Source: Crocosphaera subtropica ATCC 51142 | GTDB taxonomy: Bacteria; Cyanobacteriota; Cyanobacteriia; Cyanobacteriales; Microcystaceae | NCBI RefSeq assembly: GCF_000017845.1 | Contig: NC_010546.1 | Coordinates: 1,950,001-1,982,000 of the forward strand | Direction: 5' to 3' | Length of the DNA stretch: 32,000 nt | Shown: piece by piece, positions 2,791 to 29,320 of the stretch | Numbering within the stretch: the stretch's first letter is position 1 | Layout of the letters: every line of letters starts with the position of its first letter | Made by a program: the position numbers and the translations under genes | The notes under the pieces: generated by a model | The model's database searches: none | What the model was told of the DNA's origin: nothing | The model's input: only the letters and a program-made list of their open reading frames with translations

Positions 2791-2808
2791 ACTGACATAC
2801 CAGTATCA

Positions 2809-2844
2809 ATCAATATCTTAAGTTAAATCAATATCTTAAGTTAA
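2809..2844. repeat. Perfect 18-bp tandem duplication (atcaatatcttaagttaa x2)
   Basis: Read directly: 2809-2826 and 2827-2844 are identical. Lies between the raf1 stop and the tRNA-like fragment. Confidence 0.9.
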
Positions 2845-2858
2845 ATGTGTCGCTGTAC

Positions 2859-2914
2859 AGCAATATATCGGACTCGAACCGATGGCTCCATCACTCGTAA
2901 TGACGGTGCATCTC
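2859..2914 (-). pseudogene. Diverged 3'-half remnant of a tRNA-Thr-like gene (putative distal att repeat)
   Basis: The T-arm core tatcggactCgaaccgatg (2866-2884) matches 8252-8270 of the intact tRNA-Thr at 18/19 positions, in the same orientation. Weaker similarity extends through the anticodon arm, the D-stem 3' side and the acceptor 3' strand (agcaatat vs agccacgt). There is no D-arm and no canonical 7-bp acceptor stem, so it is not a functional tRNA. Confidence 0.55.
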
Positions 2915-3439
2915 GACCCCCTAAATCGCTGTAACTCCCATCATATATACATCACAAACCTGAACTCATGATAACTTCGACTTTATTACATAGATAGCTG
3001 AAAAGCAAAATATTAACCTCAATTTATTTCTCTCTTTTTTTATTTTAATTAGAAAAGATTCTCAATACTAGGTTTTGATAATTTGAAGAAAATGTATCAT
3101 TTCTATACAAAATAGGGTTGAAGAAAATAAAATAGCTATCGTTTAAAATTATAATTTCATTAATTTAATTTTTAGCTAAAAATGATTTGTTATTTTTTGA
3201 TTTTTGAAGGGGATGAATTTGATTAAAATTATTTTTATTTGAGTTTTGATGAAAGAAATTAAAGATATAGATATAGGGTATGTCCTTTTCCAAGGTAATT
3301 TAAAGATCGAATGTATTGTACAGATAATTCAGTGATCTTGAAAGAAAAGCATTTGTTAATTTCGGTACACAACTTGGGAATACTCACTTTAACAGCATAA
3401 AAATTAACCACTATCCCCAATTTGGAAAATTGAGCTAGT

Positions 3440-5851
3440 ATGTTTGAATTAATTAATGGTAATGCTCAAAAGTTAGACTATTCTTTTTTATTACTGACTC
3501 ATTTAATGTGTGCAGATCAACAGATACATAATAAGGAGTGGCAGTATTTAAAACAAGTTGAAAATACACTGATGGTAAGCGTATTTACTAAGGAAGAACA
3601 AGATAAGATAATCACACAAGATGAAACTATGTTATCTGTTGAAACGGTTGCTCAAAAAATAGCCAAAACTGAATACGATTCCTTGATTAAACAATTAGTA
3701 CAATTTGCTCACATTGATGATTTTTATGCACCGTCAGAACGTAAAATGATTGAGACTATTAGAAAAATGTGGGGGTTAAGTCAGAGACAAGTTAAATATT
3801 TGGAGTTGAATCAGTCATTGCAAAAGATGACTCCATTAGCCCCTATAAAACACAGTAAGAAAAAAATCAATTTAGGAGATGATTATACAAAGGCACTTAA
3901 ACAATGTGCTAAAGTTGCAAACCAAGATTTTTCTTTAACTAAAAAATACTTAAAAGAGACAAAAATTATTCTTGAAGTATTAGAGAAAACAATTATCAGA
4001 CAACTTGATTATCATAAAAATCATAATAGTCAATTTAAAAATGAAACTTACAAAGATATCCTTAAACAATTAGAAGCAACTCAACAGTCATTAAATACGG
4101 AAATTAACAAACAAATCGATCAAGCTATTGATTCTCTCCATGCAAAAGAACGTTCTCTTAAATATTTTACTATTGCTTTTATGGGAAGAACTAAAGCAGG
4201 TAAAAGTACACTCCATGCAGTCATGACGGGAGAAGGTTGGGAAGCAATAGGTGTAGGAAAACAACGCACTACTCGTTTAAATCGTGTTTATGAATTGTCA
4301 GATATTCGGATTATTGATACTCCTGGAATTGGTGCGCCTGGTGGAAAAAGTGATGAAGAAATTGCTCAAAGTGTTATTGATGAAGCTGATGTTATTTGTT
4401 ATGTAGTCACTAATGATAGTATTCAAGAAACAGAGTTTGAGTTTCTAAAACAATTAAAAGAAAAATCAAAACCCTTAATTGTTTTACTCAATCTCAAAGA
4501 TAATGTAAAGGATAGTCGGCGGTTACAACGTTTTCTAAAAAATCCTGACAAATTGTTTAAAAAAGAAGGTAACGATGGTATAGCAGGTCATATTTCCAGA
4601 ATTCGACGCTATGCTAAAGAGCATTATAGTAACGACTATTTTCCTATTATTCCTGTGATGTTATTAGCCGCACAAATATCTAAAGAAATTGAAGATAAAC
4701 AGCAAGCAGAACAACTTTTCAAAGCCAGTCGAATAGATGACTTTTTTACAGCTATTCGTGAATCAATTATAGATTATGGAAGTATTAGGCGATCGCAAAC
4801 TTTATTAGGTTCAACGGTTGGTAATATTGAACAACCCAATCAATGGATTAAAAAAGAATTAGAAAGTTATCAAAACCTAACTAATACTTTAAAAGATCAA
4901 TCTGTAAACGTCCAAAAAAATATTAAACAAGCTCAAAAAGATTCAAGATTATTATTGAAGCAAAGAATTGATGAAACCTTTGAAACAGCAATTCAAACAA
5001 TTCCTTCCTTTGCAGAAGATTATTGGAATGCTGATGCAGATACACTACAACGAGAATGGGCAAGAAAGATGAATCAGATTAAGTTGGATAAGCGAGTTGA
5101 AAACAGTTATAAAGAAGCTGGTCAACAATTTAACGAAGTTGTTAAAGATATCTTGGATGAAGTTGAACAAGAATTAATATTAATGTCTAACTTAAATGGT
5201 CATAAGTTTAAGTTTTCTCAACAAGATTCTAATGATTTTTGGAGAATGGCGTTAAAATTCGGAGGAGGTTTATTAGCAGTTGGAGCAGGATTAGTAGCAT
5301 TATTTTTCCCACCATTTGCTGTTATTTTAGGAGGGGTTGCTTTTGGAGGAGGTATTTTAAATGCCTTGGGTGGTTTTATGAAATCAAAATCTGAAAAACG
5401 AAAAAAAGCAGTTAATAATATTTCTGATAATTTAAGAAGTCAACTTAAAGAACAACAAGAAGAGACTGTTGAAAAAATGTGTAATGAGTTTGATACTAAT
5501 TGTCTTAAACTTAAGCAGACAATCAATACTTATTTTAAAAATTATTTTGAAATTTTTAAGGAGCTTTATGAGTGTTTTATCCTAAGAAATAAAGATTTAT
5601 TTGAAAATTGTGATTCTTTAAATTGTGCTTATTCTAAACGAATAATTGATTATTCTCGTCAAAAGTATGAACCGTTAACTGAAAATAATATCAATAAAAT
5701 TATTGTGAAGGTTGATAGAAAATTTGGTGACGAAATAAAAATTCAAACTCAACACTTTTTAAATTTAAAAGTCAACCAATCTCAACTGGAACAAATTTTA
5801 CAAGAAAAGATTTCTATCATTGATTTACAAGGAAAGTCTTTACTCAAATAA
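3440..5851 (+). CDS. TerB-like N-terminal domain / dynamin-like P-loop GTPase with coiled coils and a Gly-rich transmembrane hairpin
   Basis: 803-aa ATG ORF. Residues 1-115 hold two AD/DD-x(6-7)-E helical repeats (CADQQIHNKEWQYL; HIDDFYAPSERKMIETI), which I infer to be TerB-like. GTPase motifs: G1 GRTKAGKST (4184-4210), G3 DTPG (4316-4327), G4-like NLKD (4490-4501). Long K/E/Q-rich helical regions follow. Hydrophobic hairpin GGGLLAVGAGLVALFFPPFAVILGGVAFGGGILNALGG lies at 5261-5374. Confidence 0.85.
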   Translation: MFELINGNAQKLDYSFLLLTHLMCADQQIHNKEWQYLKQVENTLMVSVFTKEEQDKIITQDETMLSVETVAQKIAKTEYDSLIKQLVQFAHIDDFYAPSERKMIETIRKMWGLSQRQVKYLELNQSLQKMTPLAPIKHSKKKINLGDDYTKALKQCAKVANQDFSLTKKYLKETKIILEVLEKTIIRQLDYHKNHNSQFKNETYKDILKQLEATQQSLNTEINKQIDQAIDSLHAKERSLKYFTIAFMGRTKAGKSTLHAVMTGEGWEAIGVGKQRTTRLNRVYELSDIRIIDTPGIGAPGGKSDEEIAQSVIDEADVICYVVTNDSIQETEFEFLKQLKEKSKPLIVLLNLKDNVKDSRRLQRFLKNPDKLFKKEGNDGIAGHISRIRRYAKEHYSNDYFPIIPVMLLAAQISKEIEDKQQAEQLFKASRIDDFFTAIRESIIDYGSIRRSQTLLGSTVGNIEQPNQWIKKELESYQNLTNTLKDQSVNVQKNIKQAQKDSRLLLKQRIDETFETAIQTIPSFAEDYWNADADTLQREWARKMNQIKLDKRVENSYKEAGQQFNEVVKDILDEVEQELILMSNLNGHKFKFSQQDSNDFWRMALKFGGGLLAVGAGLVALFFPPFAVILGGVAFGGGILNALGGFMKSKSEKRKKAVNNISDNLRSQLKEQQEETVEKMCNEFDTNCLKLKQTINTYFKNYFEIFKELYECFILRNKDLFENCDSLNCAYSKRIIDYSRQKYEPLTENNINKIIVKVDRKFGDEIKIQTQHFLNLKVNQSQLEQILQEKISIIDLQGKSLLK

Positions 5852-5952
5852 ACAATGAGACAGATAAAGTTTGTATCTCAAGTTAAATTCCATTAAAGTT
5901 TTTTCCAAAACCAAATCACTCACCATCTTATTCACTTATCGAGGATAATCAC

Positions 5953-7674
5953 ATGACTACTTTTAAAGCTGCTGCGATCGCTAATCTTTTTGAAACAACA
6001 ATCACTAAATTTCGTGAGTTACTAGACACCACTAACCAACTAGAAATTAAACAAAAATTAGATAAAGAATTAGAACAACATCAAGAACAAACTTTTTTAA
6101 CCGTTGCATTTGTCGGACAATATAGCGCAGGAAAATCAACTATCATTTCTGCATTGACAGGAAAAAGAGATATTAAAATTGATGCAGATATCGCTACTGA
6201 TAAAACCACATCTTATGATTGGAATGGAATTAAAGTCATTGATACTCCTGGACTTTTTACAGATCGAAAAGATCACGACCAAATTACTTATGATGCTATT
6301 CATAAAGCAGACTTACTCATTTTTTCTCTCACTTATATGTTGTTTGATTCTATTACAGTTGAGAACTTTAAAAAGTTAGCTTATGATCAAGGATATGATT
6401 GGAAAATGATGTTAGTGATTAATAAAATGTCAAACGAAGCAGGAGAAGAAGCAGAAAAAATAAATAACTATCGTCACAGTTTAGCAGAAGCAATTAACCC
6501 CCATTATCTTAATGATTTTCCTGTGTGTTTTATTGATGCCAAAGATTATTGTGAAGGAATAGATGAAGAGGATGATTTTCTTTTAGAAATGAGTCGGTTT
6601 CCTACTTTTATTGATGAATTAAATAACTTTGTACAAGCTAAAGGTTCTCTTGCTCGTTTTGATACTCCTGTAAGAATTTCTCTGAGTTATATTGATGAAG
6701 TACAATTACAATTAATGCGAGACTCAGATGAAGATGCAGCTTTTTTCCATATTCTCAATCAATTATCTCGTAAAGTTCGGAAAGAACGTAATAAGTTACG
6801 TAATGAAGTACAAAGTATTATCCTCAGATTAACATCAGTAATTTGTACTGAAGGTAATAACTTAGCAGCAGCAGTAGGAGATAAAAATTTTGAAACTCTC
6901 AATAAACAAGCAGAATTAAATGTTCAGAAATATTATGAAAAAGCAGAAAATGAACTACAAGAGCTATTTGAATCTGCTGTTGAAGAAATTAGAGATGAAG
7001 TAAGAAAGGTTTTTGAATCTAATTTTGCTCAAACTTTTTTTACTTATCTTGAAAATAATTTTTCGTTTCATCAAAAACATCCTGACGACGGAATTAATAT
7101 TGAACAATTGAAAAATCAATTCAATGGACTCAAAAATATTGCAGAAACCGTAGGATTAGAAATAGGAAAATTAGCAACTCGAAACTTTATGAAAATTCCC
7201 AGTAAACCAGGATTTTTAAAAGGTATAGATGTGATAGGAGGCGACGTTCATAAAGGAGTTTTGCAGGTGGGAAAAGTTGTCGGATTTAAGTTTAAACCTT
7301 GGCAAGCGGTTCGTTTTGCTAAAAATATTGGTAATGCTGCTAAATTTCTTGGGCCAGTTTTAGGGGTTGTTGCATTAGGAATTGATGTCTTAGACGAAAA
7401 ACAAGAAATGAAAAGAGAAAAACAAATGTCTGATTGTCGTCGTGAAATTAATAGTACATTTCAATCTGTTGCTAAAGACTTAGAAAATCAAATACACATT
7501 CAACTCAATGATTTTGAAAAACAAGTTTATAATGAAATAGAGCAACAAATTAAGAAAGTGCGTCAACAACAAGAAGATGCTGTTTCTGCTTCTAATATTA
7601 ATGTTCAAAAACTAACAGAGATTCGTAAAGAATTTGAGCTAATTCTAAAAGAAATTAGTGAAACAATTAATTAA
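5953..7674 (+). CDS. Dynamin-family GTPase (LeoA/BDLP-like), paralogous partner of the upstream gene
   Basis: 573-aa ATG ORF with a GAGGA RBS 8 nt upstream. G1 GQYSAGKST (6115-6141), G3 DTPG (6241-6252), G4-like NKMS (6421-6432). The NTPase core aligns by eye with the upstream protein. Helical/coiled-coil stalk, with a Gly-rich hydrophobic segment FLGPVLGVVALGIDVL (7345-7392). Confidence 0.85.
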   Translation: MTTFKAAAIANLFETTITKFRELLDTTNQLEIKQKLDKELEQHQEQTFLTVAFVGQYSAGKSTIISALTGKRDIKIDADIATDKTTSYDWNGIKVIDTPGLFTDRKDHDQITYDAIHKADLLIFSLTYMLFDSITVENFKKLAYDQGYDWKMMLVINKMSNEAGEEAEKINNYRHSLAEAINPHYLNDFPVCFIDAKDYCEGIDEEDDFLLEMSRFPTFIDELNNFVQAKGSLARFDTPVRISLSYIDEVQLQLMRDSDEDAAFFHILNQLSRKVRKERNKLRNEVQSIILRLTSVICTEGNNLAAAVGDKNFETLNKQAELNVQKYYEKAENELQELFESAVEEIRDEVRKVFESNFAQTFFTYLENNFSFHQKHPDDGINIEQLKNQFNGLKNIAETVGLEIGKLATRNFMKIPSKPGFLKGIDVIGGDVHKGVLQVGKVVGFKFKPWQAVRFAKNIGNAAKFLGPVLGVVALGIDVLDEKQEMKREKQMSDCRREINSTFQSVAKDLENQIHIQLNDFEKQVYNEIEQQIKKVRQQQEDAVSASNINVQKLTEIRKEFELILKEISETIN

Positions 7675-7852
7675 ATCTATTTGTCCTAAAAGATGATTGA
7701 AAAAACCAAAAATTAGGGTAGAATTATGATATTTCTTCTCCTGTTTTGACTCTAATGTGGCTAATGTCATGCAAAATCTACTCTATAGAAAAGGTAATGA
7801 TTTTTTAGTCAAATTTTGTCCAAACTGATTTGAGATAATAAGTATTTTAATG

Positions 7853-7882
7853 ACAGCTAAACTTAGATTTAGCTGTTTTTTT
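7853..7882 (+). terminator. Rho-independent terminator closing the two-GTPase operon
   Basis: 9-bp perfect stem acagctaaa / tttagctgt (7853-7861, 7868-7876), 6-nt loop, then tttttt (7877-7882). Confidence 0.7.
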
Positions 7883-8244
7883 GATCTTTAGTATTTTTAA
7901 ATTATTTTTCACTTCTTCAAAAATCCCCTCTCAGATACTTATCGTTCTCTTTAATTTGATCTTTTATAGAAATCACACCTATGTTTCAATCATTTTCTTG
8001 AGACTGAAGAAAAATCTAATATTCATTTTGATGAACTCATCAAGATATTCAAAATCATGTATATCGTTAAAATCTTGAAAATTACTTATTATTTTATTGA
8101 CTTTGTTTAGTAGAAATGCAAATGTTTTATAAAAGTTAAAAAATAGCATTATGACTAGGTTTGAGGGTTATTGGATCTGATGTGTAATTACACTACGAAC
8201 TATACAGATGTGTAATGAGGTGTGTAATTGTTAGGGGTGAAGTA

Positions 8245-8317
8245 AGCCACGTATCGGACTTGAACCGATGACCCCATCATTACGAGTGATGTGCTCTACC
8301 AACTGAGCTAACGTGGC
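8245..8317 (-). tRNA. tRNA-Thr (anticodon CGU)
   Basis: The reverse complement folds as a canonical cloverleaf: GCCACGT TA GCTC AGTTGGTA GAGC A CATCA CTCGTAA TGATG GGGTC ATCGG TTCAAGT CCGAT ACGTGGC T. CCA is not encoded. Confidence 0.95.
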
Positions 8318-8376
8318 CTGGAATCAGGTTACATTCATAATGTATCATATTCTAACAGTGTCAATAAAATTTTTGC

Positions 8377-8646
8377 ATGGAGAAACCACCTAAAAAGTCT
8401 CGTCAGTCTCGTCCTCAACTTGATCCTGAAAAATATGCGTCTTTAAAAGCAGAAGCGGAAGCCCCTTACAAGGGTTTGAGAAAATTTTTTTATATTGCCT
8501 TTGGTGCCTCTGGTTTTATTGGGGCTGTGGTATTTTTAGCTAAATTAGCTGCAGGAAAAGAAGTTGCTTCTACTTTACCGAATTTTGCTTTACAAGTAGG
8601 CGTTGTTGCACTCATGATCTTTTTGTTTCGCTTAGAAAGTAAGTAA
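8377..8646 (+). CDS. Small conserved two-TM membrane protein (possibly DUF3493-like)
   Basis: 89-aa ATG ORF. Basic N-terminus followed by two hydrophobic helices (FFYIAFGASGFIGAVVFLAKLA; FALQVGVVALMIFLF). Host-like composition. Confidence 0.65.
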   Translation: MEKPPKKSRQSRPQLDPEKYASLKAEAEAPYKGLRKFFYIAFGASGFIGAVVFLAKLAAGKEVASTLPNFALQVGVVALMIFLFRLESK

Positions 8647-11700: not shown

Positions 11701-12777
11701 TTAGGCAAACCAAGATTGATTCATATTTAATAGATTTTCTAAGTCTTGAAAAGTAATACCATAAGTAACCGTAGGTTGTTCATAACCCTTAAGATTAACG
11801 ATGTACTGACAAAACAATTTGTCTATGTTTTGGAACTCTACAGAATAGAGATAGGTTTCCTCTCCAATGGCTACATCTAACCCTAACTCCTTAGTAGCCG
11901 ACTCTAAGCGAAATGCTGCGTTAACGGTGTCTCCAATGGCAGTATAGTCAGGATGATCTCCACTGCCTGTATTACCTACCATTGAATAGCCAGTATTAAT
12001 TCCTGCCCCAATTTTTAATTCAAAGGGAACTGGATATTCTTGACTTAGCTGTTTGGTCATCTGGTTAAGATCCCGTACGGCTTGGAAAACTTGCATCACG
12101 TCAGCTTGGGTGACTTCATTTTCTCCGTGAAACCAAATGGCCATTACTGCATCACCAATGTATTTATCGACCCAACTCCCTGCGTTACGAATAATTTCCC
12201 CTGCCTGACGAAACCAATTCCCAATTAAAGAGGATAAGATTTCTTCGTCTAATTGTCGTGTTAAGGTGGTAAAGTTCCTCATATCTACCACCATTACAGA
12301 GGTTAAGCGACGTTCATGCAAAACCATAGTATCGTGATCAACGAAGTCTGGATGAGTGATACCGCTACGATCTCTTGGAGGACTATGAAAAGCAACATTG
12401 GTTTTGCCAAAGGTAACTTTATCCCCACTTTTCAGGGTGACAGGAATACCCACACGACGATCATTGACAAAGGTTCCGTTACGACTCCCTAGATCGATCA
12501 GTAAAAAATCCCCCGTTTCAGTGGATTGCAAAATAGCATGGTTACGGGAAATACAGTGATCTCCAATAGAAAAATCGTTGTCTTTTCCTCGACCAATCGT
12601 CCAATAGTTCTTACCCACCAAAGGAAAATAACGTTTACCTTTAGCAATGTCTAACAGCAGATGGGGAGTATTGGCGAGATTATCCACAGATATTTGAGAG
12701 GGTGGCAGTAGGACAACAATCAAAGGGACACGGCCTATTTCATTGTACCGACTTACGCAAAAGAAGCAGCAAACCAA
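11701..12777 (-). CDS. FHA-domain class III adenylate/guanylate cyclase (Cya1-like)
   Basis: FHA motifs WTIGRGKDNDFSIGDHCISRNHAIL...DLGSRNGTFVN. Cyclase core LTSVMVVDMRNFTTLT...KYIGDAVMAIWF...GINTGYSMVGNTGS...YTAIGDTVNAAFRLES. The track start at 12777 is a TTG giving an odd VCCFFCVSRY leader, so a shorter start (TTG 12723) is more likely. Confidence 0.9.
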   Translation of the reverse strand: MVCCFFCVSRYNEIGRVPLIVVLLPPSQISVDNLANTPHLLLDIAKGKRYFPLVGKNYWTIGRGKDNDFSIGDHCISRNHAILQSTETGDFLLIDLGSRNGTFVNDRRVGIPVTLKSGDKVTFGKTNVAFHSPPRDRSGITHPDFVDHDTMVLHERRLTSVMVVDMRNFTTLTRQLDEEILSSLIGNWFRQAGEIIRNAGSWVDKYIGDAVMAIWFHGENEVTQADVMQVFQAVRDLNQMTKQLSQEYPVPFELKIGAGINTGYSMVGNTGSGDHPDYTAIGDTVNAAFRLESATKELGLDVAIGEETYLYSVEFQNIDKLFCQYIVNLKGYEQPTVTYGITFQDLENLLNMNQSWFA

Positions 12778-13475: not shown

Positions 13476-13739
13476 CGTTTGTTAACCTTTATGTATATTA
13501 TGAGTTTTTCTTTACTTTACTTAACTTATCGCAAAACTTCTTCTTAGGGTATATCCCCTAGGGGGGCATACGATTTTATAGTAACGAAATTCTCTAGATC
13601 CGTCAATGCGTAGGGGTTGAACGGTGTTATGACTCTATTACAGTGTTATGCCCTGAGAAAAATTTATAGGGTTATAATATTGTTAAGTTTCTGAGCATAA
13701 TTATTTTAAAGATAAAAATCGTGAAATAAAAATAATAAT

Positions 13740-14330
13740 ATGACCACACAATTAAATCTAGAAACTAACTCGACGGCTGAACAAATTATTGTTTTTCCAG
13801 GCTGCTATCATTGGCAACAGTTTAAAACCATACAATCTATTATTAATGAACAATCAACCGCAAAAATAAGTTAGTTAGATGGACAAATTGAACTGATAAC
13901 AACAGGAGAAGATCATCAAAGAATTAAAACGATATTAGGTTTTTTAATTGAACTTTATTTATGTGAAAAAGAGATTGACTATCTTCCTGTCGGAAGTGCA
14001 ACCCGTGAAGCAGAAATAAAAGGCGCATCTTTTCAACCTGATGAATCTTATTATCTCGATAAAACTAGAAAAAATCCTGATTTAGCGATAGAAGTTATCT
14101 TCACCAGTGGAGGAATTAATAAGTTAGAAAAATATAAACGCTTTGAGGTTACTGAAGTTTGGTTTGGGCAAAATAATCAGTTATCAATTTACTATTTGAA
14201 CAATGGCGAATATAAACAGGTTAATCACAGTATTGTATTACCTGAATTAGATATTAATGTGTTAGTAAAATGCGTTAGTTTGCCTTCTAGACCACAAGCT
14301 AAAAAGATTTTTATGGAAGGGTTAAGATGA
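13740..14330 (+). pseudogene. Uma2-family (DUF820) endonuclease gene interrupted by one in-frame TAG
   Basis: Hand translation from ATG 13740: MTTQLNLETNSTAEQIIVFPGCYHWQQFKTIQSIINEQSTAKIS*LDGQIELITTGEDHQRIKTILGFLIELYL...FQPDESYYL...NPDLAIEVIFTSGGINKLEKYKRFEVTEVWFGQNN...YYLNNGEYKQV...LPELD...*. The stop TAG at 13872-13874 sits where the family has Tyr (ISYLDG). The frame is otherwise intact to TGA 14328-14330. Confidence 0.8.
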
Positions 14331-14341
14331 TTCTTAAATCT

Positions 14342-14650
14342 CTAAGATGAGACTAACTTTCTAACTAATTCTATATCTAATTGTAATAAATTAGCCGTTT
14401 GTTCAATCGTAAATCCTTGTTTAATCAAACTAGGAATTAATTCTAATTTTGCCTCAAGTTTACCCTCTATTTTACCTTCATCACGGGCTTCTTGATAAAA
14501 GCGTGTTTGTTTTAAATCATTTAATCCTAACATTTCTTCGATTTCCTCCCGACTTTTCTCTGGAGACTTATAGATAACAATAGTTTCTATTAAATTAAGA
14601 ACATTTTGGCGAATGGGTTCATCGGTAAGTTCTTCTGTTGCTTGATTCAA
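14342..14650 (-). CDS. Rpn-family (PD-(D/E)XK putative transposase) C-terminal, DUF4351-like fragment; probably a 5'-truncated remnant
   Basis: 102 aa with a TTG start and an in-frame stop only 5 codons upstream (14666-14668). IETIVIYKSPEKSREEIEEMLGLNDLKQTRFYQEARDEGKIEGK is the characteristic C-terminal block of this family. The ~180-aa N-terminal nuclease domain is absent. Confidence 0.5.
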   Translation of the reverse strand: MNQATEELTDEPIRQNVLNLIETIVIYKSPEKSREEIEEMLGLNDLKQTRFYQEARDEGKIEGKLEAKLELIPSLIKQGFTIEQTANLLQLDIELVRKLVSS

Positions 14651-14740
14651 TAATTGTTGACTTTTTTAAAAAATATCGCCTAATTTATTTTGTTTTCATT
14701 ATAATATACTTGTTATTTCAGTATCTGTAAAGATTAAACA

Positions 14741-15160
14741 ATGAAAGATTCTCATAAAATATCACAATCTATCTCTAATGTGGGCTTTATATCAGGAGGA
14801 ATACAGGCAGCAATTGGCGATAATATACAAAATATGACAACTGTATCTGATCAGGAAAATAATACTTTTTCTTCAACAGAGATGATTAAATTATTATCTC
14901 AAATAGAAAAAGTAATTAAAAATACTGATTTTCCTCCCGAAGCAGAAGAAATGAAAAGGAAAATTGAGCATTATGTAACACAATCTAAAATGGAAGCTGA
15001 AATTAAGAATCCTGACAAGCAATTTATTCGTACTAAACTAGAACAAGTATCTACCGACATAGAAAAAGCGAGTAAGACTTTTGATTCTGTTAGCAATTTA
15101 TGGCGAAAAGTTAAGCCACTATGTTTAAAATTATTAGGGTTATTGAGTAACATGGTATAA
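14741..15160 (+). CDS. Orphan helical protein, first gene of a two-gene cassette
   Basis: 139-aa ATG ORF, very AT-rich. N-terminal GGIQAAIGDNIQN (14795-14815 core), then an E/K-rich helical region ending LCLKLLGLL. Confidence 0.55.
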   Translation: MKDSHKISQSISNVGFISGGIQAAIGDNIQNMTTVSDQENNTFSSTEMIKLLSQIEKVIKNTDFPPEAEEMKRKIEHYVTQSKMEAEIKNPDKQFIRTKLEQVSTDIEKASKTFDSVSNLWRKVKPLCLKLLGLLSNMV

Positions 15161-15196
15161 AAAAAGTTTAAGTTTAATTCGTGGAGAAGGTAGAAG

Positions 15197-15883
15197 ATGT
15201 CAAAACCTTTGCATAGTTCACACTTTGGAGATAATCACAAGAATGATTTTGAAATTTGTCAAAATGCAGAAAACTCAGTTATGAATGGAGGGATGCAGTC
15301 TGCTATTAATCACGGAAATGGCTCGATCAATCAAAATCAAATTATTAATTATCAAAATCATAATTCTATTAAATTAGAAAAAGATACGATAAAAAGTTTT
15401 TCTCGAAGTGAAATACATAAGCAAGCTAGTCTAAATTTTTTATTGTATTTTATCTGTGCTATTTGTGTTTTCTTATTTTTTAAAATTTTACCCTTGTTAT
15501 TCGATATTAATAAAATTTACTTTTTTGTTTTGTTTTTGTGCTTTTTTATTTCTTTTAGTATAGTTAAATTCTATCGTTATCCGTATATTTTGATGTTTTT
15601 ACTTCGTAAAATCAATTGTGAACATTATTTAGGACAAGGAATATTTTTATATAAGTCTTCCAATGGCAATTGTATTATATACTGTAAGTCTGCACAATGT
15701 AATTATTCTAGTTGTGAGCAAGGAATTGTTTATTTACAAGATCCGCCCCCTAGAGAAAAAGAAAATCATACATATATCGGGAAATGCAATAAAGGAGGAA
15801 AAGCCCATGTATATAAGGTTTCTGATAATTTCATTGGTATTCCTCATACTCAAGGATTTGATTGGCGTAAACTTAATGAATAA
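15197..15883 (+). CDS. Orphan membrane protein with N/Q/H-rich N-terminus, two TM helices and a C-terminal Cys cluster
   Basis: 228-aa ATG ORF with a GGAGAAGG RBS upstream. N-terminal GGMQSAI (15287-15307). TM helices at about residues 78-103 and 107-126. C159-x3-C-x4-C-x4-C173 (15671-15715), plus C141 and C197. Confidence 0.55.
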   Translation: MSKPLHSSHFGDNHKNDFEICQNAENSVMNGGMQSAINHGNGSINQNQIINYQNHNSIKLEKDTIKSFSRSEIHKQASLNFLLYFICAICVFLFFKILPLLFDINKIYFFVLFLCFFISFSIVKFYRYPYILMFLLRKINCEHYLGQGIFLYKSSNGNCIIYCKSAQCNYSSCEQGIVYLQDPPPREKENHTYIGKCNKGGKAHVYKVSDNFIGIPHTQGFDWRKLNE

Positions 15884-15922
15884 TTTTTGTCTTCAAAAAA
15901 TTTGCTAAATAGTCTAACTTCT

Positions 15923-15950
15923 AAAATAAAAAAGGTGGGCAATGCCCACC
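15923..15950 (-). terminator. Rho-independent terminator of clpB (hairpin also faces the convergent + strand gene)
   Basis: ggtgggc (15934-15940) aat gcccacc (15944-15950). On the minus strand it is followed by ttttttatttt (complement of 15923-15933). Lies 8 nt after the clpB stop. Confidence 0.8.
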
Positions 15951-15957
15951 CGACAAA

Positions 15958-18576
15958 TTAAACTGTTACCATCTCAGATGGTAGACGTTTAAAGGTTAAT
16001 CTTTCATCTTCAACATCAGCAAAGATAGTGTCACCTGGTTTGAATTCTCCCCTTAAAATTGACTTAGCGATAGGGGTTTCTAAGTACCGTTGAACCGCCC
16101 GTTTTAAAGGTCTTGCACCATATACCGGATCATAACCGATATCAGCAACAAAATCTAAGGCCACATCAGCTAATTTCAGGGACATTTTTTGGTCTTCTAA
16201 ACGACTTCTGAGGAGTTGAATTTGTAGCTTAACAATTTCTCGCAGTTGTTCTTTTTCTAAGCTATGGAAGATGATAATTTCGTCGATACGATTGAGAAAT
16301 TCAGGACGGAAATTATTACGCATTGCGTCCATGACACGGGAACGCATTTCGTCATAATGACTATCGTCTCCAGCCACATCTAAAATGTATTGAGAACCGA
16401 TATTACTGGTCATGATAATGATAGTATTTTTGAAATCTACTACCCGACCTTGAGAGTCTGTTAAGCGTCCATCGTCGAGAATTTGTAACATGATGTTGAA
16501 GACATCACCGTGGGCTTTTTCTATCTCGTCAAAGAGAATGACTGAGTAGGGACGACGACGAATGGCTTCCGTTAATTGTCCTCCTTCATCGTAGCCTACA
16601 TACCCTGGAGGCGCACCAATTAAACGGGATACGCTATGCTTCTCCATATACTCGGACATATCGATACGAACGATCGCTTCTTCGGTATCAAAAAGATTCT
16701 TCGCTAAGGCTTTGGCTAATTCTGTTTTACCGACACCCGTGGGTCCCAAGAAAATGAAACTAGCGGTAGGACGATTGGGATCAGAAAGTCCGGCACGAGA
16801 ACGCTGTATAGCTTCTGAAACGGCGGTAACAGCCTCTTCTTGTCCAATCACTCTCTCGTGTAATTCGTCCTCTAAATGTAATAGTTTTTCCTTCTCAGAT
16901 TCCACTAATTTACTGATAGGTATTCCTGTCCATTTAGAGATAATCTCAGCAATATCTGACTCGATAACTTCCTCCCTTAATAAAGTTTTACCTGTGGTTT
17001 GTCGTTCTTCAATTTTGCTTTCTAACTCTTTAACTTGTCGCTGTAAATCTGTTAGTTTGCCATAGCGTAATTCAGCAGCTTTATTAAGGTCATAATCTCG
17101 TTCAGCTTGTTGAATTTCTAAGTTGACTTGATCAATCGTTTCTTTGAGTTCACGAATCTGATCAATGACTTCTTTTTCTGCTTGCCATTGGGCATTGAGT
17201 TGAGATTGTTCTTCTTTGAGATCAGCTAATTCTTTTTCTAGTTTTTCTAGGCGTTCACGGGAAACTTGATCCTCTTCTTTTTGTAAGGATAAGCGTTCCA
17301 TTTCTAACTGCAGAATCTTACGATCAACTTCGTCTAATTCTTCGGGTTTAGAGGTGATTTCCATCTTTAATTTAGCGGCTGATTCGTCTACCAAATCAAT
17401 GGCCTTATCCGGTAAGAAGCGATCGCTAATATAACGGTTAGATAACATGGCTGCTGCAACGAGTGCAGTGTCAGCAATTTTAACCCCATGATGGACTTCA
17501 TAACGCTCTTTGAGTCCCCGTAAAATGGAAATCGTATCCACTACATTCGGTTCATTGACTAATACCTCTTGAAAACGTCTTTCGAGGGCTGCATCCTTCT
17601 CAATATATTTACGATATTCATCAAGGGTTGTTGCCCCAATACAGCGCAATTCTCCCCGTGCTAACATAGGTTTTAATAGGTTCCCTGCATCCATAGCCCC
17701 TTGAGTGGCACCGGCACCCACAACGGTATGAATTTCATCAATAAAGAGGATAATATTGCCTTGAGAATCAGTGACTTCTTTTAAAACAGCTTTCAATCTT
17801 TCTTCAAATTCTCCGCGATATTTTGCCCCAGCAATAAGTGAACCCATATCCAAAGCAATTAACTTTCTATCCCGCAAAGATTCAGGGACATCTCTGTTAA
17901 TAATTCGTTGTGCCAAACCTTCAACAATTGCCGTTTTACCCACGCCAGGTTCCCCAATTAAAACGGGATTATTTTTGGTTCTACGGGACAATATTTGAAT
18001 GGTTCGGCGAATTTCATCATCCCTACCAATCACCGGATCAAGTTTACCTTCTCTGGCTAATTGAGTTAAATCTCGTCCATATTTTTCTAAGGCTTCGTAT
18101 TTATTTTCAGGATTTTGATCGGTCACTTTTTGATTTCCTCTCACTTGTTTAATAATCTCTTTTAAGTTGTTTTCACTTAGACCAAATTCCTTGAACAAAT
18201 TTTTACCAAAACGATCATCTTTACTGTAGGCTAAGAGTAAATGTTCAATGGAAATATAGTCATCTTCAAATTCTTTGCGAAACGTCTCACTTCTGTCAAG
18301 TAAACTGTCTAAACTACGACCTAAATAGACGGACTCTCCAGGGTTCGAGACTTTCGGTTGACGACGAATAAATTCTTCAGTTCGATCGCGTAATTTTGGA
18401 ACACTAATATTAGCTTTATTGAAGATGCTTGTAGCGAGTCCCTCTTGTTCAGTCAGAGACTTCATTAAGTGTTCACTTTCAATTTGTTGCTGACTATTTT
18501 GTTTAGCAATATCTGGGGTTCGCACGATCGCTTCCCAGGCTTTTTCTGTAAATTGATTAGGATTAGTTGGTTGCAT
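15958..18576 (-). CDS. clpB: ATP-dependent chaperone ClpB
   Basis: 872 aa. Two AAA+ modules (Walker A GEPGVGKT and GPTGVGKT; Walker B ILFIDEIH and [11 protein letters not shown]). Long middle coiled coil, Clp N-domain, GAR sensor motif. Confidence 0.97.
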
Positions 18577-27954: not shown

Positions 27955-28150
27955 TATACAGATTTTGACACTCCCACGGGGTTCTACCCGTGGGATTCTT
28001 GCTTCACAGACCCTTATCTAGCCAATCAAAGATTGACCCCGACAGTATGTCTCCACAAGCATTTTCATTCACGGACTGCCCGACCGCCACTAGACCACGA
28101 TTTCTTATTATTTGGCCAGCTGCAACGTCCCTATTTGTTTGATACCCACA
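27955..28150 (-). ncRNA. Putative TnpB guide RNA (omega/reRNA) scaffold region; boundaries approximate
   Basis: Established: TnpB guide RNAs derive from the 3' end of tnpB plus the right element end. Seen: an 8-bp perfect hairpin cccacggg gttcta cccgtggg (27973-27994), 10 nt downstream of the tnpB stop. No covariance model was run. Confidence 0.35.
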
Positions 28151-29320
28151 ATAAGGACAACAATGGAGTCTATCTGATAGACTTTTTTTACCTGTATGAG
28201 TATTACAATTAGGACAAATTTGGCTGGTATAGTCTTTATCTACCTTAAGAAAATAGACATCTCTTTTCCAGCAAACATACGCCAAAATATTGAAGAACTG
28301 ACCAAAACCAGCATCTAATGTATGCTTACCAAACAAGCCTTTAGCCCAAGCTTTTAAGTTAATATCTTCTACAAATATCATGCCAGCTTGATCACACAAA
28401 TGATGAGCTAATTTAAAATGCCAGTCTTTTCTAGTATCGTGGATCTTTTGATGAACTCTAGCTATTTTAGACTGAAGTTTTTGCCAATTATTAGACCCCT
28501 TTTTCTTGTTCTTTAACCTTCTTTGCAGTGATTTCAACTGGCCATGAAGTTGATTAAAAAACCGAGGTCTTTTGACTAATTCCCCATCTGAAGTAGCTAA
28601 GTATGAATCAAGTCCGATATCTACCCCTAGAGGATGTCCATGTATCGGGGTTTCAGGGATGTTGACCGCTAACTGATAACTTAGCTGTACAAAATACCCT
28701 GATGCCCGTTTAACTACCCTAATTTGTTTGATAAGAAACCCATCAGGAATAGGTCTAGACATTCTCATTTTTACCTCCCCAATTTTGGGAAGTTTTACCC
28801 AACCACTGCCTACCCATTCTTGCTTAACTGATGGGTAGAGAAAACTTCTCATTTTCTTCTTATAGCGTGGAAAACCAAAACCCCTTTCCCACATATTGAC
28901 AAACGCAGCCTCCAAAGTTCTTAGAGTCTGTTGCAACACTTGAGAGTGAGGTTCCTTTAATTCAGAGTAGCTTTTCTTGGCTTCTGTTAAAGATTTACAT
29001 TGAGAATTGTAGGTAGGTTTAGGAGCATTTGGATTAATTATGTATTCAGAATGAATTGAACAAGCATTGATAGGCGACTTACGACTGTTCACCCAATCCT
29101 TCCTTTCTCGAAGTGCGTAGTTATAAATTTTTTTGCACGTTTCAAGATATGTCTCAATTTTTTGAACTTGAGATTTTTTAGGCTTGAGTTTAAAGTCGTA
29201 AGTCATCGTTATCATGCCCTCGTTATAACATAGTTAATAAACGGTTTTCAATTTATTAACTATGTCTTCACTCCGACTAAAATCGAGGGGCTGTGTGGCG
29301 AATCGCATTCGCCACCCTGT
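27960..29320 (-). mobile_element. IS200/IS605-family element carrying tnpB only (no tnpA); ends approximate
   Basis: The tnpB ORF is flanked by perfect hairpins. On the right-end side: 27973-27994. On the left-end side: gtggcgaat cgc attcgccac (29295-29315), plus a 13-bp inverted repeat catagttaataaa/tttattaactatg (29229-29241 / 29252-29264). No Y1 transposase ORF is nearby. Exact termini cannot be set from a single copy. Confidence 0.7.
28004..29215 (-). CDS. tnpB: TnpB (IS605 OrfB family RNA-guided endonuclease)
   Basis: 403 aa. N-terminal YDFKLKPKKSQ...; RuvC-I LGVDIGLDSYLATSDG, RuvC-II IFVEDINLKAW, Zn-ribbon CPNC...CPYC, RuvC-III NRDVAAGQII. The catalytic residues appear intact. Confidence 0.95.
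   Translation of the reverse strand: MITMTYDFKLKPKKSQVQKIETYLETCKKIYNYALRERKDWVNSRKSPINACSIHSEYIINPNAPKPTYNSQCKSLTEAKKSYSELKEPHSQVLQQTLRTLEAAFVNMWERGFGFPRYKKKMRSFLYPSVKQEWVGSGWVKLPKIGEVKMRMSRPIPDGFLIKQIRVVKRASGYFVQLSYQLAVNIPETPIHGHPLGVDIGLDSYLATSDGELVKRPRFFNQLHGQLKSLQRRLKNKKKGSNNWQKLQSKIARVHQKIHDTRKDWHFKLAHHLCDQAGMIFVEDINLKAWAKGLFGKHTLDAGFGQFFNILAYVCWKRDVYFLKVDKDYTSQICPNCNTHTGKKSLSDRLHCCPYCGYQTNRDVAAGQIIRNRGLVAVGQSVNENACGDILSGSIFDWLDKGL

Follow-up and report, generated by a model that had tools for sequence, protein, structure and literature searches.

Crocosphaera subtropica ATCC 51142, a strain formerly assigned to Cyanothece, carries on its chromosome, within the window analyzed here (32,000 nucleotides (nt); NC_010546.1, 1,950,001–1,982,000), two adjacent genes, denoted A and B, that encode a pair of dynamin-like GTPases and belong to the Eleos anti-phage system as its LeoBC and LeoA components, respectively. 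The pair represents a subtype in which LeoBC carries an additional, N-terminal TerB domain. A preceding sequence-only reading of this DNA had proposed a dynamin-like pair with a relation to Eleos; Pfam, PADLOC, and fold matches agree on the former, and the PADLOC profiles for LeoBC and LeoA place the pair inside Eleos. We put the probability of the architecture and mechanism of a TerB-bearing Eleos LeoBC–LeoA dynamin system, taken as a whole, at about 0.72, and consider the odds that anti-phage defense is the physiological role of the pair in ATCC 51142 to be about even.

The PADLOC LeoBC profile PDLC03841 matches amino acids (aa) 148–791 of protein A over nearly its entire length (profile positions 6–595 of 601; expectation value (E) 8e-115), and the experimentally validated LeoBC of Bacillus vietnamensis aligns with A starting from A residue 147 and Bacillus residue 7 (28% identity, E 8e-48). 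The G domain of A contains the P-loop (G1) GRTKAGKS at aa 249–256, the G3 motif DTPG at 293, and NLKD at 351, the P-loop and DTPG being invariant across 32 homologs. With the AlphaFold (AF2) model of full-length A (predicted local distance difference test (pLDDT) 79, predicted template modeling score (pTM) 0.73) as the query, the best Foldseek matches are Nostoc BDLP (2j69, 4e-10), IniA (6j72, 1.7e-9), LeoA (5e-8), the mitofusins MFN1/2, and Cj-DLP; the matches to dynamin-like proteins (DLPs) span E-values from 4e-10 to 1e-5, with the best template modeling (TM) score of 0.35/0.44 obtained for 5oxf_C. The glycine-rich hydrophobic hairpin of A, which is predicted to insert into the membrane and falls in a region of low pLDDT in the AF2 model, had been taken for a fused addition but turns out to be a feature of the LeoBC family: its motif GGG...AGA...FF.PP.G is conserved in the family and is located inside the profile match. 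A is a fusion-class DLP of the LeoBC type: its P-loop and G3 motif are intact, its stalks are long and helical, and the tip of the stalk bears the conserved hydrophobic hairpin.

Protein B, a DLP of the LeoA type, has a hydrophobic paddle that is shorter. The PADLOC LeoA profile PDLC03839 covers aa 2–572 of B (profile positions 6–558 of 559; E 1.9e-130), the validated B. vietnamensis LeoA is 32% identical (E 3e-43), and the crystal structure of LeoA from enterotoxigenic Escherichia coli (ETEC; PDB 4aur) is recovered by sequence (E 3e-13). Among the Pfam families, B matches DLP_helical (1.9e-15), MMR_HSR1, and Dynamin_N, whereas the NCBIfam model DLP_LeoA_gen scores 120.8 bits, under its cutoff of 325. 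The nucleotide-binding motifs are the P-loop GQYSAGKS at aa 55, DTPG at 97, and NKMS at 157, and the hydrophobic segment of B lies both within the DLP_helical match and in the region aligned to residues 443–563 of LeoA 4aur. The motifs and their equal spacing in A and B, as well as the glycine-rich hydrophobic segment in each protein (A aa 603–647, B aa 459–481), are as described in the sequence-only reading. The P-loops of both GTPases are intact and do not vary within the family. A BLASTP comparison of A with B detects 23% identity over 253 aa (E 3e-10), a stretch that covers the G domain plus the first helices of the stalk; the two proteins are distant paralogs. Across the family, the fourth position of the G4 motif departs from the canonical Asp, with NKMS in the LeoA-type proteins (B and the validated Bacillus LeoA) and a variable residue in LeoBC (NLKD in A, NVKH in the Bacillus protein), and sequence comparison suggests that guanine specificity may be achieved differently in the LeoBC/LeoA family.

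The possibility of a new family outside Eleos, which the sequence-only reading had entertained, is rejected by the PADLOC profiles and by aligning A and B directly with the validated proteins; A is a clean match to LeoBC and B to LeoA, each over nearly the full length. In effect, the locus is already cataloged via a conspecific strain, given that Table S5 of Millman et al. 2022 includes a LeoBC+LeoA pair in ‘Cyanothece sp. ATCC 51472’, along with many other cyanobacteria, and that ATCC 51472 and ATCC 51142 are the same species in the NCBI taxonomy. The distinctive feature of the locus is the TerB subtype, which is itself common in the family; Calothrix PCC 7507, another entry in that table, encodes a homolog of A (P0066) that carries TerB.

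The Eleos (or ‘Dynamins’) system was validated using the pair from B. vietnamensis NBRC 101237 (Millman et al. 2022), and the name Eleos comes from Cury et al. 2022. Protection by the B. vietnamensis pair extends only to the jumbo phages AR9 and PBS1 and is abolished by P-loop mutations in either protein (Millman et al. 2022). This pair resembles A/B in the adjacent, co-directional order LeoBC–LeoA, in the P-loop and DTPG motifs, and in the NKMS motif of LeoA, but the beginning of the Bacillus LeoBC corresponds to A residue 147, so that A contains about 146 extra N-terminal residues that encompass the TerB domain. In the Leo locus of ETEC H10407 (PDB 4AUR), the LeoBC gene or genes are located upstream of leoA, which is the gene order of A/B, and LeoA contains a hydrophobic, glycine-rich paddle at the trunk's tip that is shared with our pair; A matches LeoA by fold. 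The large subunit of ETEC H10407, however, is split into LeoC and LeoB, with an N-terminal membrane anchor in LeoC, whereas A is a single polypeptide with TerB at the N-terminus instead. The ETEC Leo proteins have been linked to vesicle and toxin release. LeoA alone neither binds nor hydrolyzes GTP, and a heterodimer with LeoBC across the G domains has been proposed (Michie et al. 2014). More distantly, Nostoc BDLP1, Mycobacterium IniA, Campylobacter Cj-DLP1/2, and the mitofusins share with A the G domain, the helical neck and trunk, and the hydrophobic tip, but show only 12–15% identity, are not detected by the LeoBC and LeoA profiles, and lack TerB.

The N-terminal TerB domain that had been suspected in the larger protein is genuine, and we consider the assignment sound. 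When aa 1–148 of A were scanned alone, the Pfam TerB family (PF05099) scored 27.1 bits against a cutoff of 24.4, whereas in the scan of full-length A, the score was 18.8 bits, under the cutoff; among non-redundant homologs, all 32 N-termini examined match the family (best E 2.3e-13). A profile of these N-termini compared with the PDB retrieves 2ou3, the Nostoc punctiforme ‘tellurite resistance protein of COG3793’ (Npun_F6341), with E 5e-4. The model of aa 1–148 is a seven-helix bundle (pLDDT 84); the top five PDB structures that it retrieves are TerB-like without exception (2h5n, 2ou3; probability 0.84–0.99), and the matches that follow are at or below 0.14. As in other TerB proteins (PF05099; PDB 2ou3, 2h5n PG1108), the N-terminal domain of A is entirely helical, spans about 115 aa, and contains two acidic motifs, CAD26..E33 and D93..E100, which are invariant or nearly so among the homologs; residue 94 of A is Asp, as opposed to Gly in at least 90% of the homologs. 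Those TerB proteins, however, stand alone or belong to ter operons, whereas in A, TerB is joined to a dynamin-like GTPase and is only 11–16% identical to the solved TerB-like structures. The linker between TerB and the core (aa 127–144) has a pLDDT of about 30 in the full-length model and is flexible as modeled.

The fusion of TerB with LeoBC was not found described in the literature searched, in agreement with the sequence-only reading, which knew of no system of this kind, and the validated Eleos system lacks TerB; the survey of TerB architectures by Anantharaman, Iyer and Aravind (2012) may depict the fusion, and some JGI product names of A relatives already read ‘tellurite resistance protein B-like/GTP-binding protein’.

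The same reading held that TerB had been acquired by a divergent pair, which is not borne out, because the TerB form is widespread in LeoBC. A word-indexed protein search with A yielded more than 1,900 relatives, the best 120 of which are nearly all cyanobacterial, with 43–48% identity over 97–99% of A and, in most cases, a precomputed PF05099 match. An exhaustive search of 1.84 billion cluster representatives identified 1,441 relatives, 360 of these with E ≤1e-30. Among the best 150 of the 1,441, there are 128 near-full-length representatives of 50%-identity clusters, and a family profile detects an N-terminal TerB domain in 97 of the 128. The Pfam TerB cutoff is exceeded also by four members that are only 28–32% identical to A, and one of these four is encoded in a Firmicute-like integrative element (an assignment made from the neighboring genes) that encodes an integrase, RecQ, PIN, MazE, YodL, and SpoVG, with a 568-aa LeoA partner directly downstream. 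LeoBC proteins lacking TerB (about 650 aa) are a minority among the closest relatives of A; the validated B. vietnamensis protein (716 aa) lacks the domain, as does P0002, which among proteins from other genomes is the closest to A (62% identity) and which contains a C-terminal GUN4 domain. We reject a one-off local fusion on the strength of the 32 sampled homologs, the 97 clusters, and the Pfam-passing distant members: the TerB fusion is an old, widespread LeoBC subtype that was not acquired in the Crocosphaera lineage.

Several relatives of A show further variation in domain architecture. Two of them, P0003 and P0005, contain two tandem TerB domains; a C-terminal YbjN domain is present in P0012 and at three genome loci (L025, L039, and L073); P0023 is also among the relatives with extra modules; and P0074 (1340 aa) carries a complete C-terminal Hsp70. 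In E. coli DjlA, a TerB-like domain is joined to a J domain, and, by analogy, the Hsp70 fusion may be a second link between TerB and chaperones. In most cyanobacterial homologs, a conserved segment of about 45 aa (LSxGARLLKGxxSxLSRxL...APExxGRKIEQLRREILLAGPEY) separates TerB from the LeoBC core; the segment is missing from A and from a sub-clade whose P-loop lies near aa 249.

The pairing of the two genes is a general feature of the family. Among 80 homologous loci, which come from cyanobacteria or metagenome bins, a LeoA-like gene is found directly downstream of LeoBC in most cases, with few exceptions, mostly at contig ends. At one metagenomic locus (L002), an extra partial LeoA-like fragment (7993–8469; 57% identity to B aa 394–553) occurs upstream of the TerB-LeoBC gene, which suggests a local duplication or rearrangement of the pair. 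No other gene is conserved next to the pair, the commonest neighbor family being present at 13 of the 80 loci. A scan of 185,579 species genomes with two peptide patterns, which gives a lower bound, confirmed at least 182 A relatives, with a patchy distribution. The pair of the congener Crocosphaera sp. XPORK-15E (L001; 58% identity for A and 73% for B) resides in a different genomic context, and a plasmid copy in Pseudanabaena galeata, in which LeoBC is again followed directly by a LeoA-like gene, adjoins a Tn3 transposase, a DEAD-box helicase, and a methyltransferase. The GC content of the pair is under that of its flanks at 40 of 41 loci, which may be due in part to coiled coils rich in Lys, Glu, Asn, and Ile. 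The patchy spread, the variable position, the copies on plasmids and integrative elements, and the low GC are accessory-gene traits. A universally syntenic housekeeping gene is rejected, with no neighbor cluster in more than 13 of the 80 loci and a different context in the congener. Of the associations for which the sequence-only reading had proposed to search gene neighborhoods, the co-occurrence of the pair was found, whereas defense genes showed no clear enrichment and tRNA genes were nearby at only a few loci.

We infer the following mechanism for the pair from the family (Michie et al. 2014; Millman et al. 2022). The hairpin would anchor protein A in the cytoplasmic or thylakoid membrane, leaving the two stalk arms on the cytoplasmic side; A would recruit B, and the G domains of A and B would dimerize heterotypically on GTP. 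The GTP-driven assembly would tether or remodel the membrane and thereby block infection or seal damage. The TerB domain, which sits on a flexible tether and retains its paired acidic motifs, is most likely a sensor or targeting module that would gate or localize the assembly in response to a membrane-proximal cue, for example, a metal ion, a small ligand, or a membrane perturbation. TerB occupies the same end of A at which the LeoC of ETEC has its membrane anchor. TerB is membrane-associated and recurs in the defense systems Bunzi and Shango, for which membrane surveillance has been suggested (Millman et al. 2022). A more specific version, on which we would place a tentative and rather low bet, is that TerB-LeoBC is a dynamin gated by a ligand or by the membrane state, with TerB holding LeoBC/LeoA off until a membrane-proximal signal arrives; the release signal could be a small molecule of the Ter type, or else an influx of ions or a disturbance of the envelope as the phage enters.

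The operon and the stretch of DNA that surrounds it are summarized in Table 1. Scans for open reading frames (ORFs) and terminators confirm the layout seen by eye, with two co-directional ORFs (803 and 573 aa) separated by a gap of 101 nt and followed by a single terminator, which is the sole plus-strand terminator-like site within 2800–8400; A and B are co-transcribed. The start codon of A is in register with the starts of its homologs in the alignment, and B is preceded by a good Shine–Dalgarno sequence. Upstream of A, no ORF of at least 60 aa was found in 2931–3439, and the promoter-like matches in that region are consensus-level only, not above chance. The remaining ORFs of at least 60 aa on the islet are a 65-aa ORF with a TTG start at 7881–8078 and one internal out-of-frame ORF; there is no integrase in the ORF list of the islet, and the Rfam scan of the window revealed no non-coding RNA on it. 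The GC content is 0.304 for the A+B pair and 0.296 for the stretch 2931–8243, whereas the remainder of the window has 0.383. The C. subtropica ATCC 51142 genome encodes a protein 100% identical to A, and the identical locus is present in several sequencing runs made independently; an exact-sequence look-up of the flanking DUF3493 protein returned the locus of the same strain only.

Table 1 Features of the TerB-LeoBC–LeoA locus of C. subtropica ATCC 51142 (positions in the window).
Feature	Position	Strand	Basis or remarks
tRNA-Arg(acg)-like element, left islet edge	2858..2930	-	ARAGORN only
AT-rich upstream intergenic region, presumably operon promoter and 5' untranslated region	2931..3439	+	GC ~0.27–0.31
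Gene A, LeoBC-type large dynamin-like GTPase of Eleos	3440..5851	+	803 aa
TerB domain of A	3479..3820 (aa 14–127)	+	Pfam TerB, fold matches; followed by a linker modeled as flexible (aa 127–144)
G domain core of A	4169..4492 (aa 244–351)	+	Pfam MMR_HSR1 7e-15; Dynamin_N at cutoff
Gly-rich hydrophobic hairpin of A with Pro-Pro turn, stalk tip	5246..5380 (aa 603–647)	+	Kyte–Doolittle maximum 2.31 over 45 aa
Gene B, LeoA-type small dynamin-like GTPase of Eleos	5953..7674	+	573 aa
Hydrophobic paddle/tip segment of B	7327..7395 (aa 459–481)	+	Single 23-residue segment; hydropathy 1.82
Intrinsic terminator closing the two-gene operon	7852..7882	+	10-bp stem (7852–7877), 6-nt loop, then T-run
tRNA-Thr(cgt), right islet edge, 3' end towards islet	8244..8318	-	ARAGORN; Rfam tRNA 69.8 bits

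The description of the pair as occupying a tRNA-bounded, AT-rich islet holds in part: the low GC and the tRNA-Thr are solid, but the tRNA-Arg-like element is weak, with a score of 18.6 bits against the gathering score of 29 for the Rfam tRNA model and an aberrant D-arm, and the layout is specific to this genome. It probably represents either a tRNA that has degenerated or a remnant of the att type. Its 3' half resembles that of the tRNA-Thr, and the similarity is close in the anticodon stem, variable region, and T-arm. The anticodon loop exactly matches the Thr loop in reverse complement (an inverted match of 17 of 18 nt). The islet is positioned 3' of the intact tRNA-Thr and ends at the tRNA-like partial direct repeat, with both elements on the minus strand; this is how a tRNA-integrated island is laid out, but there is no integrase. 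The repeat search revealed no clean att-type repeat, the tRNA-like similarity excepted. A tRNA-flanked island as a trait of the family is rejected, with a tRNA within 10 kb at 4 of 40 homologous loci. Directly outside the tRNA-Arg-like element, on the side of the Raf1 stop codon and before it is reached, at 2808–2843, there is a perfect 18-nt tandem duplication (two copies of AATCAATATCTTAAGTTA).

Several observations weigh against the interpretation of the locus as a TerB-gated defense system. The experimentally validated Eleos system lacks TerB, so that a defense role of the TerB-bearing form is putative, and the sensor or gate role of TerB, most likely as we hold it to be, is our inference. 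The fold matches of the TerB domain are modest (TM 0.42–0.51, Foldseek E 0.1–0.6). The fourth position of the B G4 motif is not the canonical Asp, so that its nucleotide specificity is putative, although the validated LeoA has the same NKMS. The PADLOC scan found no convincing defense-model match among the neighbors of the pair in the window. At 31 non-redundant cyanobacterial loci, the immediate neighbors are mostly housekeeping genes, matches to defense or mobile-element genes are few, and few of the 122 neighbor ORFs match PADLOC defense models; no clear defense-island enrichment is seen among these neighbors, in contrast to the 60% defense co-localization reported for the Eleos family overall (Millman et al. 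2022). The PADLOC ‘Cas12f’ matches among the neighbors of homologous loci come from TnpB genes.

A rival reading assigns the pair a different function in cyanobacteria, namely, that of a membrane-maintenance or stress system involved in the repair or remodeling of the cytoplasmic or thylakoid membrane, with TerB reporting envelope or metal stress. A role of this kind has been suggested for DynA of B. subtilis and for the DLPs of cyanobacteria, which, as a review (PMC5827413) argues, may serve thylakoid dynamics, and besides the mainly housekeeping neighborhoods, it would fit the core photosynthesis and proteostasis genes that flank the pair in the window (Raf1, DUF3493/LPA1-like, ClpB, SecA), the great diversity of the TerB subtype within cyanobacteria, and the C-terminal Hsp70, YbjN, and GUN4 modules of the relatives, which hint at proteostasis or pigment-related roles. 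The evidence against a maintenance function comprises a patchy distribution (at least 182 pattern-confirmed relatives among 185,579 species genomes), a position that is not conserved even between Crocosphaera species, plasmid and integrative-element copies, a GC content lower than that of the host flanks, and the clear homology to a validated defense pair. Such traits are those of an accessory rather than a housekeeping pair, and we regard membrane maintenance as an unlikely, even if reasonable, explanation.

Still more doubtful, in our assessment, is that the TerB-like region is just a structural cap or an oligomerization helix bundle that came down with the subtype and senses no ligand, with the system working like TerB-less Eleos. 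TerB-less LeoBC proteins do exist, one of them fully functional, and the closest outside relative, P0002, is among them; the modest fold-search statistics and the Asp in the place of Gly94 point in the same direction. Against such a cap, 97 of the 128 near-full-length related clusters retain the domain, some of them as distant as about 28% identity; the paired acidic residues D26/E33 and D93/E100 are invariant or nearly so; some members have the domain in tandem duplicate; and TerB also recurs in Bunzi and Shango. We consider it very improbable that the islet is what a tRNA-integrated mobile element left behind, inert and with the pair no longer functional in ATCC 51142. Although the low GC, the intact tRNA-Thr at one end with the degenerate tRNA-like partial direct repeat at the other, and the lack of an integrase could be so construed, both ORFs are full length with the catalytic motifs and conserved family residues intact, the operon has a good Shine–Dalgarno sequence before B and a terminator of its own, and the locus is identical across several independent sequencing runs. 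We thus retain a TerB-bearing Eleos system as the preferred interpretation.

The surroundings of the pair consist largely of core cyanobacterial genes, Raf1 and a GT4 glycosyltransferase in the left flank and the DUF3493/LPA1-like protein in the right flank, with ClpB, an allophycocyanin-family protein, SecA, and MetRS farther out in the window. A fusion of an FHA domain with a class III nucleotidyl cyclase (11701–12777, minus strand) matches the PADLOC models of the Pycsar cyclase (PycC) with E-values up to 2.7e-21, which probably reflects generic similarity of the cyclase domain, with no effector gene evident beside it. A second AT-rich patch (13500–16000; GC about 0.29), between DUF3120 and clpB, contains two small plus-strand ORFs, 14741–15160 and 15197–15883, both without a Pfam match; the 139-aa one of the two shows a weak, partial match to the PADLOC candidate-system model PDC-M14B (E 1.5e-6). 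A transposon-associated gene of the IS605 OrfB/TnpB family, with a Cas12f-like TNB domain, is located at 28004–29215 on the minus strand.

Apart from TerB, the locus is an ordinary, already cataloged member of Eleos. The TerB subtype, however, appears to account for a large share of the LeoBC relatives, most of the cyanobacterial ones included, whereas the sole tested system lacks the domain. A recognizable sensor-type domain on a tether offers a concrete handle on the infection trigger of Eleos. If the tentative reading of TerB-LeoBC as a gated dynamin is true, TerB would be a ‘membrane surveillance’ sensor shared by Eleos, Bunzi, and Shango, and the TerB form would be a major Eleos architecture with a trigger that can be studied directly. 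For the biology of cyanobacteria, the pair is a candidate for defense against cyanophages or for protection of the membrane or thylakoid.

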